Shown: positions 10,104-64,000 of the stretch, piece after piece
How positions within the stretch are numbered: position 1 is the first letter of the stretch
Layout: each line of letters starts with the position of its first letter
DNA from: Lama guanicoe
Lineage: Eukaryota
Direction of reading: 5' to 3'
DNA length: 64,000 nt
Assembly: GCA_013239625.1 (NCBI GenBank)
Contig: MU053588.1
Coordinates: forward strand, 3,872,799-3,936,798
Notes under the pieces: model-generated
Seen by the model: only the letters and a program-made list of their open reading frames with translations
Databases searched by the model: none
Told to the model about the DNA's origin: nothing
Position numbers and translations under genes: made by a program

Positions 10104-10231
10104 TTTTTTTTCGGGGTGAGGGGAGGTAATTGGGCTAATGTTATTTGTTTTATAATAGAGGTACTGGGGATTGAACCTAGGACCTCGTGCATGCTAAGCA
10201 CTCACTCTACCACTGAACTACACCCCTCCCC
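10104..10231 (-). mobile_element. tRNA-derived SINE (Vic-like)
   Basis: Same head and body as the other copies. Confidence 0.88.
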
Positions 10232-34351: not shown

Positions 34352-34460
34352 GGGGAGGGTATAGCTCAGTGGTAGAGTGCCTGCTTAGCATGCACAAGGC
34401 CCTGGGTTCAATCCCCAGTATCTCCATTAAAAAAATAAATGTAAAAAAAGAAAGAAAAAA
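34352..34460 (+). mobile_element. tRNA-derived SINE (short Vic-like copy)
   Basis: GGGGAGGGTATAGCTCAGTGGTAGAG...GGTTCAATCCCCAG plus A-rich tail. Confidence 0.88.
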
Positions 34461-43947: not shown

Positions 43948-44092
43948 GGGGGAGAGTATAGCTCAGTGGTGGAGTGCATGTCTAGCATGCACGAGGTCCT
44001 GGGTTCAATCCTCAGTACCTCCATTAAATAAATAAATAAACCTAATTATCCCCCCCACCCCACCCCCCAAAAAACCCCAAAACCAACCAAAC
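43948..44092 (+). mobile_element. tRNA-derived SINE (Vic-like)
   Basis: Full head and tail; imperfect TSD AAAAACATTGGAGGAG / AAAAATATTGGAAGAG. Confidence 0.9.
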
Positions 44093-61769: not shown

Positions 61770-63171
61770 TTCTTATTATGGTTAAAATACATATTATAAT
61801 GTTTACCATTTTAACCATTTTTAAGTGTTCAGCTCAGTAGGACTAAGCAATTCACACTACCACTATCCATCTCCAGACCCTCTGTATCATCCAAAACTGA
61901 AACTATGTACTTATCAAACAGTGACTCCCCTTCACCCCAGCCTCTGCTCCCGTAAGCCCCTGGTAACCACATTCTACTTTCTGTCTCTGAATTTGACTGT
62001 TCTGAGTACCTTATATAAGTGAAATCATACAATATTTGATATTTTGTGTCTGGCTTATTTCATTTAGCATAATATTTTCAGGGTTTCCATGTGGTAGCAT
62101 GTATTAAAATTGTACTCCTTTTTAAAGCTGAATAATATTTCATAATATGTGTAAACTACATTTTGTTTATGCACTCATCTATTGTGTACATGTGTTTTTT
62201 TCCACCACCTTTGGCTACTGTAATGTTGCTATGAACACTGGTGTACAAATATCCATTTAAATTCTTGCCTTCAGTTCTTTTGGGTATATACCTTAAAGTG
62301 GGATTGTTGGATTACAGGGTAATTCTATGTCAGAATTTTCGAGGAACCACCATATTGTTTTCCACAGCAGCTGCACCGTTTTACATTCCTACCAGCAATG
62401 CACAAGAGTTCTAATTTCTCCACATCCTCACCAACACTTGTCATTATCTTTTTTCTTTTATAATAGTAGCCATCATAATGCATGTGAAGTGGTATCTAAT
62501 TGTGGTTTTGATTTGCATTTCCCCAATAATGAATGATATTGATCATCTTTTCATGTTCTTTTTGGCCATTTGTATATTTTCATGGAAGAAATATCTATTC
62601 ATTTGCTCACTTAAGAATGGGGTTGTTTGTTTTCTATTGTTGAGTTGTAGAAATTCTTTATATATTTTGGATATTAATTTCCTGTCAGATAAATAATTTG
62701 AAAATCTTTTTCCCTTTCTGAGGGTTGCCTTTTTACTACATTTATATTTACCTTTGATGCACAAAAGTATTTAATTTTGATGAAGTCCAATTGATTTATT
62801 TTTTCTGTGCTTGCAGTATCATGTCCAAGAAATTGTTGCCAAATCCAGTGTCATGAAGATTCCCCTATATGTTTTATTTTAAGAGTTTTATAGTATTAAC
62901 TCTTACTTTTAAATCTTTGATCCATTTTGAGTTAATTTTTGATTATGGTGTGAGGTACGTGTCCAAATTCATTCTTCTGCATGTAGGTGTCTCGTTTTCC
63001 CAGCACCATTTGTTGAAGAGACTGTTCTTTCCCCCATTGAATGGTCTTAGCCCCCTTGTCAAAATCAATTGACGGTCCATGTGTGAGTTTTTATGGACTC
63101 TGAATTCTGTTCCATTGATCTGTATGCCTGTCTTTATGTCAGCAACACAGTTTTTTATTATGATACCTTTG
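61770..63171 (-). mobile_element. Older L1 (L1MA/MB-like), interrupted by the provirus
   Basis: Antisense L1 ORF2/3' UTR sequence, e.g. CCAGCACCATTTGTTGAAGAGACT, ending abruptly at the LTR TG. Confidence 0.85.
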
Positions 63172-64000
63172 TGTAGGCCCCCGCCTGAAGGCTCTAGAGA
63201 ATAAGCTGTGGGCTGAACTGATAAACAAGCTGTGAGGAATGTCATCATGTATCCAGTATAGATGGCTGGATAGTCAATGACGGGTAAGATCCTCAGAGGA
63301 GGACAACCTAAGACAGGCACAGCCGGCTGGATGAGAGATGGCCTACTTAATGAAGTTTCGTGACGAACTTTAAAACAGTCTGTCCTTGATCATGTAACAT
63401 CCTGTGCTTACTGCAGGAACTTGGGGACCTAAATAGATTAAGATTATTAACATTGTCATAACTTAGATGATATGTGAGGCATCGTGCATGTCCTATATAA
63501 ACCTTTTTCCAAGAGTCAATAAACAGAGAACTGCTTCGCTTCTCTCCACATGGTGTTCGTGTGTACATGATATCGCGCCACCGACATTTGGTGACCCCGA
63601 CGTGATATCAGCGTGGTGACTACATGTAAGTAAGGGGAAAAATTTATATCGGGGACTTTCAGCCTATCAGGTGCGCCGCAATGTAACTATGGGACAGCAG
63701 CTGACAGTACAGCAGAGGATTTATTTCCGTATTCGGCAGCAATTGTTAAAGGCTATTTCAAAGCAGGGCACCCTCCCAGGGGCCCCTCAAAAACAAATAT
63801 AGGAAATCACTGTCAGCCAAAGTCCCATCTCACCATTTCTGACCTCATCACATCTTCCCCCGGGAGTGCAAGTTTAGATCTAATGACTATTGATAATGAG
63901 TTGATACATGACAGTAATAAAACCTACTTAATCTCTACTGGAGTTCTGGGTATTTTGGATTGCTATTAGGGAGATTATCTGTGGGCTTAAACGGGTTAAC
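63172..64000 (+). mobile_element. 5' end of a betaretrovirus-like endogenous provirus (LTR 63172-63586, PBS-Trp 63589-63606, deleted gag, dUTPase relic)
   Basis: TGTAG...CGACA termini, TATATAA 63494-63500, AATAAA 63518-63523, PBS TGGTGACCCCGACGTGAT, donor GTAAGT 63626, MGQQL... start at 63689, dUTPase motifs PGSASLDL, STG and FGLLLGR. Confidence 0.9.
63689..64000 (+). pseudogene. Defective retroviral gag (37-aa MA/C-terminus fusion, 63689-63802) and frameshifted dUTPase-pro
   Basis: MGQQLTVQQRIYFRIRQQLLKAISKQGTLPGAPQKQI*; -1 frame reads TISDLITSSPGSASLDL...YLISTGVLG, then a frameshift to YFGLLLGRLSVGLNGL. Confidence 0.8.

Follow-up and report, generated by a model that had tools for sequence, protein, structure and literature searches.

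Mammalian class II retroviruses are usually taught as lysine-primed. Some derivatives of endogenous retroviruses (ERVs) are non-autonomous and move with a helper, as ETn is moved by MusD in the mouse. For EqERV-u1, a lineage of the horse family, Zhu, Gifford and Murcia are said to have reported a tRNA-Trp primer site in 2018.

According to the accessible text of PMC3621094, every betaretrovirus uses variants of the lysine tRNA. Class II retroviruses are marked by dUTPase, zinc-finger, frameshift and G-patch features (PMC1224870, available in part). In birds, intermediates between alpha- and betaretroviruses and a Phe-primed beta clade have been described (PMC3482500); as far as the available parts of PMC3482500 and PMC1224870 go, the avian intermediates have a dUTPase but no G-patch. 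A felid class II clade lies between alpha and beta in the accessible part of PMC4373062. The available part of PMC5046194 presents EqERV-u1 as unique to Equidae and as standing between the alpha- and betaretroviruses; its type II genome is described as having a dUTPase upstream of gag, and its entry is put at possibly more than 18 Myr ago. A JSRV-like virus of dromedaries (PMC9122393, available in part) is unrelated to the family described below.

The DNA analysed here, termed the window, is a stretch of 64,000 nucleotides from Lama guanicoe (contig MU053588.1, positions 3,872,799 to 3,936,798), which ends within a retroviral element. A camelid host agrees with an interferon-alpha ORF of this genome, which was identical to a protein labelled Vicugna pacos; of the 21 members of its cluster, the 15 listed were all camelid. 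The reading that we consider probable is that the window holds the 5′ portion of a dead class II ERV copy, deleted in gag and with a primer-binding site (PBS) for the host tRNA-Trp, that an equid retrovirus (likely EqERV-u1) is the nearest to it by Gag, and that the copy was likely packaged by a related gag-bearing helper.

Layout and state of the window copy

The insertion target was an old LINE-1 fragment outside the ERV (61830–63171, minus strand, left edge approximate), whose minus-strand frames we take to resemble the C-terminus of LINE-1 ORF2. The observed/expected CpG ratio was 0.16 across 62001–63171 of this flank versus 0.54 in the LTR. All ERV features lay on the plus strand. Judging from the target-site duplications of the family, positions 63167–63171 are likely the left half of a 5-bp duplication whose partner was lost. 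The 5′ LTR (63172–63586) was 415 bp long with TG...CA ends and belonged, by LTR search, to a short subfamily of ~412 bp. Two nucleotides separated it from the PBS (63589–63606). From the letters alone, the LTR contains a TATA-like box (63494–63501) and a candidate polyadenylation signal (63518–63523), and a match to the hexamer consensus marks a candidate major splice donor in the leader (63626–63631).

A Gag-like ATG was found at 63689, and the frame starting there closed after 37 residues. The gag stub (63689–63765) comprised the first 24–25 matrix codons; 14 of the first 24 residues were identical to the N-terminus of an equid ERV Gag (P0009). The junction of a ~1.5-kb gag deletion shared with other copies, which removed the rest of the matrix, the capsid and the nucleocapsid, lay at 63765/63766, so that the dUTPase followed only ~24 codons after the gag start. 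A decayed dUTPase-protease (pro) start occupied 63766–64000 and ran past the window through the protease into the first part of the reverse transcriptase (RT). Its dUTPase frame opened at 63921, extended beyond the window end and matched PF00692 (E=2.6e-14); the in-window piece of this frame alone gave no Pfam match. The order LTR, PBS, Gag start and dUTPase proposed in the first-pass annotation is real, with the LTR and PBS coordinates, the likeness of the Gag N-terminus and the PF00692 match all in agreement.

Over ~1,360 columns, the window copy was 90% identical to the gag-less copies L005 and L008. Family homology stopped within RT, ~930 bases beyond the window end, at position 2233 of L001, a fetched stretch that spans the window end and contains no N. 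Beyond that point, neither a 3′ LTR nor internal sequence of the family turned up in what remained of L001 or in three further 10-kb stretches (~37 kb), which leaves no right-hand partner for the target-site duplication predicted for this copy. After insertion, the window copy likely lost the 3′ three-quarters of its sequence, and what is left is decaying. Nothing points to a function of this dead fragment.

Minor observations were made around the element. A C2H2 zinc-finger exon with 13 fingers (L001:8895-9998, minus strand) lay ~6.6 kb past the break, facing the truncated provirus. Within the window, one tRNA-Val-like and three tRNA-Ala-like hits were found (1046–1117, 10156–10227, 34355–34426 and 43952–44023); the tRNA-Ala-like hits may be tRNA-derived SINEs, which we assume to occur in camelids. 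In a search of sequencing runs, 20 of 24 rows, from five organisms, held 0.47–0.61 of the words of window positions 62600–64000.

The primer-binding site

The PBS was the exact 18-nt complement of the end of the genome's own tRNA-Trp(CCA) gene plus CCA. Across the 2.05 Gb of the genome, this 18-mer had eight occurrences and the reversed control none. Six of the eight occurrences sat behind LTRs of the window copy's family and its sister lineages, one behind an LTR resembling that of a second Trp-primed group, and one (L036) had no retroviral context that we could find. Without the CCA part, the pattern had 15 matches in the genome versus 7 for the control, and six of the seven additional matches were tRNA-Trp(CCA) genes by ARAGORN. 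At L036 (C6341:4446863-4446880), the 18-mer was flanked by two copies of a short sequence and is possibly a small insertion of a tRNA end.

The Trp primer site is a trait of the whole family. Among 19 distinct internal copies, the PBS was readable in 15, and all 15 were Trp-type: six were exact, eight had one to three changes and one had a one-base insertion (the other four copies were unreadable). Ten of the 15 PBS changes were CpG-type. Family members with a Lys site, which had been named as evidence against an unusual primer in this lineage, were not seen among the readable copies. As a control, nine other class II loci of the same genome had Lys-type sites, some of them presumably Lys1,2. 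The Lys3 primer-site sequence was taken from the available part of PMC3185775.

By textbook retrovirology, minus-strand DNA synthesis would have started from a host tRNA-Trp paired with the 18-nt site. A hairpin between U5 and the PBS was tried as additional support for the Trp site and rejected: its fold is possible, with z=-1.12 and 27 of 200 shuffles equally good, and two-sided change was seen in one of 17 pairs, which is no evidence for it.

Copies, genome plan and age of the family

The LTR search gave at least 43 matches from 40 scored of 570 candidates, so the copy number is a lower bound. The 19 distinct internal copies were picked through LTR, PBS, capsid and RT searches, leaving out L006 as a duplicate of L005. 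These two (C5396:236100-269200) are one provirus present twice, ~26 kb apart with the same flanks, as a segmental or assembly duplicate. A family LTR was also found inverted at the 3′ end of, or within, another family copy (L007:5244-5688 and L003:1467-1572).

Capsid and nucleocapsid were kept in only two of the 19 copies, L002 and L024. The parent genome plan was LTR-PBS(Trp)-gag-dUTPase/pro-pol-env-PPT-LTR, ~7.6 kb long, with a beta-type env. L002 (7.6 kb) used a separate frame for each of gag, pro and pol; it had two zinc fingers and matches to Gag_p10, Gag_p24, zf-CCHC_5, dUTPase, integrase and GP41, with its genes interrupted at several points. Taken together, the sister copies L002 and L005 matched Gag_p10, Gag_p24, zf-CCHC_5, dUTPase, RVT_1, RVT_thumb, rve and GP41 in Pfam.

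Target-site duplications were scored at 28 fetched LTR loci, 27 of which were readable at both ends. Fifteen of the 27 were perfect at 5 bp and one at 6 bp, and two more fitted 5 of 6; the duplication of about 6 bp that had been predicted does not hold for a family that mostly makes 5 bp. A 5-bp duplication was discarded as a family marker, with one also found at the Lys-primed locus L045 of the same genome.

Nine distinct LTR pairs had K2P distances of 0.032–0.087; the pair of L026 (74% identity, misplaced) was left out. With T=d/2r and r=0.2% per Myr, a rate that is not camelid-specific, the family dates to ~8–22 Myr, or to 5–29 Myr over the rate range of 0.15–0.3% per Myr given in the available part of PMC5682256. 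The window LTR compared with 10 close LTRs had K2P distances of 0.051–0.089, for an upper bound of ~13–22 Myr. The earlier description of the provirus as not very old is weakened to an age of ~8–22 Myr.

Placement among class II retroviruses

References came from a viral collection. L075 matched RSV/ASV integrase chains, L068 was HERV-K-like by RT, and L067 matched 3jca/7usf, which we take to be MMTV, making L067 MMTV-like; the remaining viral references were labelled by their genome length. The RT tree (40 rows, 309 columns) contained 11 labelled rows of the family and L027, which came out together within class II with 100/100 support. They stood apart from the alpha reference and from four Lys-primed beta references, themselves a 100/100 clade, with the deeper forks open. 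The window copy, which filled 87 of the columns (29%), fell in a gag-less subclade of nine rows (100/100). Together with RVT_thumb in sister copies, and with the two zinc fingers and the separate gag, pro and pol frames of L002, features that the window copy lacks through its gag deletion, the tree supports a class II ERV.

A second Trp-primed group was found in the same genome (L037, L041, L042, L052, L058, L059, L060 and L063), with sites differing by 0–3 changes and with different LTRs. It formed its own clade in RT and capsid (100/99). In the largest Gag tree, it joined the family, the equid Gag and two further proteins (95/93), and in two other Gag trees it did not. A single Trp-primed clade is likely from these alignments, though not settled. 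In the whole-pol tree (24 rows, 817 columns), bird ERVs, the alpha reference and the second Trp group were neighbours of the family with weak support (83/85, 80/73). A single beta-type query served as anchor for both pol alignments, a possible source of bias.

One alternative takes the family for an ordinary betaretrovirus in which tRNA-Trp replaced tRNA-Lys as the primer within camelids. It shares with Betaretrovirus (MMTV, JSRV/ENTV, MPMV/SRV) and HERV-K(HML) the dUTPase at the pro start, the three frames of gag, pro and pol, two nucleocapsid zinc fingers, the Gag_p10 matrix and a beta-type env. Its best solved-structure matches were a HERV-K-type Gag and RT and a beta-type integrase; in the RT structure search 7sr6 was the best PDB match, followed by lentiviral RTs, and the integrase scored 161 bits against beta-type chains versus 124 bits against alpharetrovirus chains. 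Forcing the family together with the beta references cost 38.6 log units in an AU test and was not rejected (p-AU 0.054). We nevertheless think such a switch unlikely. Left free, the Gag trees, like the RT tree, placed the family outside the Lys-primed beta clade. The G-patch was absent in L002 and L024 and present in L044, L064 and L066, a difference that is not decisive given that it is also missing in the MMTV-like reference L067 and marks many, not all, mammalian members. Next to the equid protein, the nearest named Gag relatives are non-mammalian, and in the largest Gag tree another Trp-primed group lies close by, which speaks for a primer held in common since long ago rather than for a recent switch.

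The opposite reading is that the element derives from alpharetroviruses, or came recently from birds, and inherited its Trp site from viruses of the avian leukosis type. The 18-mer was indeed identical to that of alpharetrovirus-like references, and the whole-pol grouping with bird ERVs and the alpha reference agrees, weakly. But alpharetroviruses lack a dUTPase and have their protease in the gag frame, whereas the family carries a dUTPase and gives pro a frame of its own, besides having a beta-type env and target-site duplications mostly of 5 bp; its RT was not sister to L075; and in the capsid the equid Gag was 18% identical to the alpha reference versus 65–66% to the family. We therefore give an alpharetroviral or recent avian origin very little weight. 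With the avian intermediates, the family has in common a dUTPase without a G-patch; from both these and the alpharetroviruses it differs in its mammalian host, its beta-type env and its position, which was not sister to the alpha reference in Gag either.

What we prefer is a class II lineage that works like a beta-type retrovirus, and for which the present tests do not warrant a place in the genus Betaretrovirus. The first-pass label of betaretrovirus holds only loosely: the dUTPase N-terminal of the protease and the beta-type env agree with it, the Trp primer does not, and RT and Gag fell outside the Lys-primed clade, though the AU test (p=0.054) did not reject joining the two. With its Trp primer and dUTPase, its beta-type env and its nearest named relatives among reptiles and birds, the family would supply mammalian material for the space that separates alpha- from betaretroviruses.

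The equid sister lineage

The best Gag match in the protein collection was an Equus protein (E=3e-133, 51% identical over 82%), and the next was 30% identical, among the best 7,992 candidates scored. The members of the equid cluster came from Przewalski's horse, donkey and zebra. Capsid identity of the equid Gag was 65–66% with L002 and L024; none of the other 28 rows outside the equid pair exceeded 42%. A Gag search of 1.84 billion representatives placed P0010 (67%) first; it was sister to the Equus Gag in the Gag trees, and the other full-length matches reached at most 43%. Of ten such matches that were looked up, seven had names, all of them turtle, bird, lizard or caecilian. A clade of the family and the equid Gag was recovered in an anchored tree (87/92), with MAFFT and a mixture model (98/99) and with 23 added relatives (100/100). 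The suggestion of a camelid-specific element thus fails at the level of the lineage, where the equid Gag is the sister group. Searches with RT and integrase retrieved no protein from camelids or equids.

Across horse, zebra and donkey, the Gag ORF of the P0009 cluster has been kept at 92–98% identity, and it may be one old shared locus or a case of co-option.

By exclusion and tree position, P0009 likely belongs to the EqERV-u1 lineage, and the family is most likely the camelid sister of EqERV-u1. Compared with the available part of PMC5046194, both have a dUTPase, an alpha/beta-intermediate position would be common to both (the whole-pol tree fits it with weak support), and their entry times overlap, possibly more than 18 Myr ago for EqERV-u1 and ~8–22 Myr for the camelid family. 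They differ in the host, which is a camelid here and was given as Equidae only in that source. Unlike EqERV-u1, the common camelid form lacks gag altogether. A genome of the EqERV-u1 kind with the dUTPase before the capsid was not found among the examined loci, and L002 and L024 had the type I-like order.

If the family is indeed the sister of EqERV-u1, the lineage extends beyond equids, and a transmission between orders long ago could be dated from both sides. Our literature search found no description of a Trp-primed class II ERV in camelids; Repbase, Dfam and supplements lay outside it and may hold one. An equid alpha/beta-intermediate lineage is already on record in the accessible text of PMC5046194, which weakens the expectation of a poorly described element. 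What is new is a real extension of the host range of a known lineage type to camelids.

Loss of gag and mosaic genomes

The distance from the PBS to the dUTPase was 181–316 nt in 12 copies versus 1682–1687 nt in the two gag-bearing ones. Copy-by-copy loss of gag after insertion would make these plain decayed proviruses with no spread in trans, and the copies are indeed old, with many private deletions, and L030 has its own, separate gag-deletion junction. Against this, the same junction motif was found in eight of the 12 gag-less copies at different loci, three more shared the boundary within a few bases, and gag-less copies have their own target-site duplications and LTR pairs. A junction shared by unlinked loci largely refutes deletion after insertion, which we regard as highly improbable.

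Rather, the deletion goes back to one virus. At least three Trp-primed viruses that had diverged to pro-pol nucleotide identities of 61–73% entered the germline, and one of these lost nearly all of gag at a single junction. Compared with L002, the copies L005, L008, L029 and L031 were 61–70% identical from dUTPase to integrase and 87–91% in env, whereas L027, L032 and L033 were 62–70% identical throughout. This difference, together with the shared junction, indicates that some copies then took LTR and env from the gag-bearing virus. Four gag-less copies had ~112 extra bases of helper-like leader ahead of their own. The window copy combined a mosaic-type LTR, the gag-less junction, a gag-less pro-pol and an end within RT; it has no env, and its mosaic state was read from LTR versus pro-pol only.

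Without a capsid of its own, a gag-less RNA would move only inside the particles of another virus, and the mosaic copies would fit template switching between co-packaged RNAs. The gag-less copies probably spread by means of the Gag of a related helper virus, and their mosaics would then testify to packaging between viruses with a pol identity of only about two-thirds. Part of the mosaic pattern could also be expected from recombination among exogenous viruses before germline entry. As in ETn/MusD, an internal deletion is common to many loci and the LTR is common with the helper; the difference is that here only gag was lost, the dUTPase, pro, pol and env were retained, and pro-pol came from a virus diverged from the source of LTR and env.

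Pairwise dN/dS, computed by a crude method without CpG correction, was 0.35–1.13 for pro, pol and env in the gag-less group, 0.56–0.75 for the gag-bearing pair and 0.10–0.15 between lineages, where computable. Within the gag-less group, these pairwise values gave no sign of continued selection on pro, pol or env. The pattern suggests selection during viral life and drift afterwards.

Relatives in other collections and in the same genome

No relatives with DNA context were found in viral contigs (by integrase) or in metagenomes (by Gag alignment). A PBS scan of metagenomes gave at least 110 loci, and among the matches listed there was no matrix, nucleocapsid or dUTPase, only weak or alpha-like pol matches. 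A search of the ESM Atlas with the env SU returned no usable match.

Horses and camels both lived in North America in the Miocene. A broader scenario can be offered tentatively, and we are more inclined to doubt it than to accept it: the two camelid groups would belong to one Trp-primed alpha/beta-intermediate clade, for which the horse family is the sole further mammalian host found by name; with one group being sister to the equid virus, a virus would have crossed between horses and camels in the Miocene; and the gag-less form, which has its dUTPase directly after a matrix stub and has recombined with a helper in the leader, would be the type of intermediate behind the EqERV-u1 genome with its dUTPase before gag.

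One copy of the second Trp group had only gag and env matches, LTRs that were 99% identical and a 6-bp target duplication; the near identity of its LTRs indicates that this group was active more recently. An internal block of the LTRs of L030, L033 and L058, ~82% identical over 190–250 bases, was common to the first and second Trp groups, which hints at a possible exchange between them.

The same genome also holds a younger betaretrovirus family (L044-L050, L057 and L062). It was Lys3-primed, had a G-patch and was nearest to a beta reference of 7,434 bases, and its LTR pairs were 93–99.8% identical.
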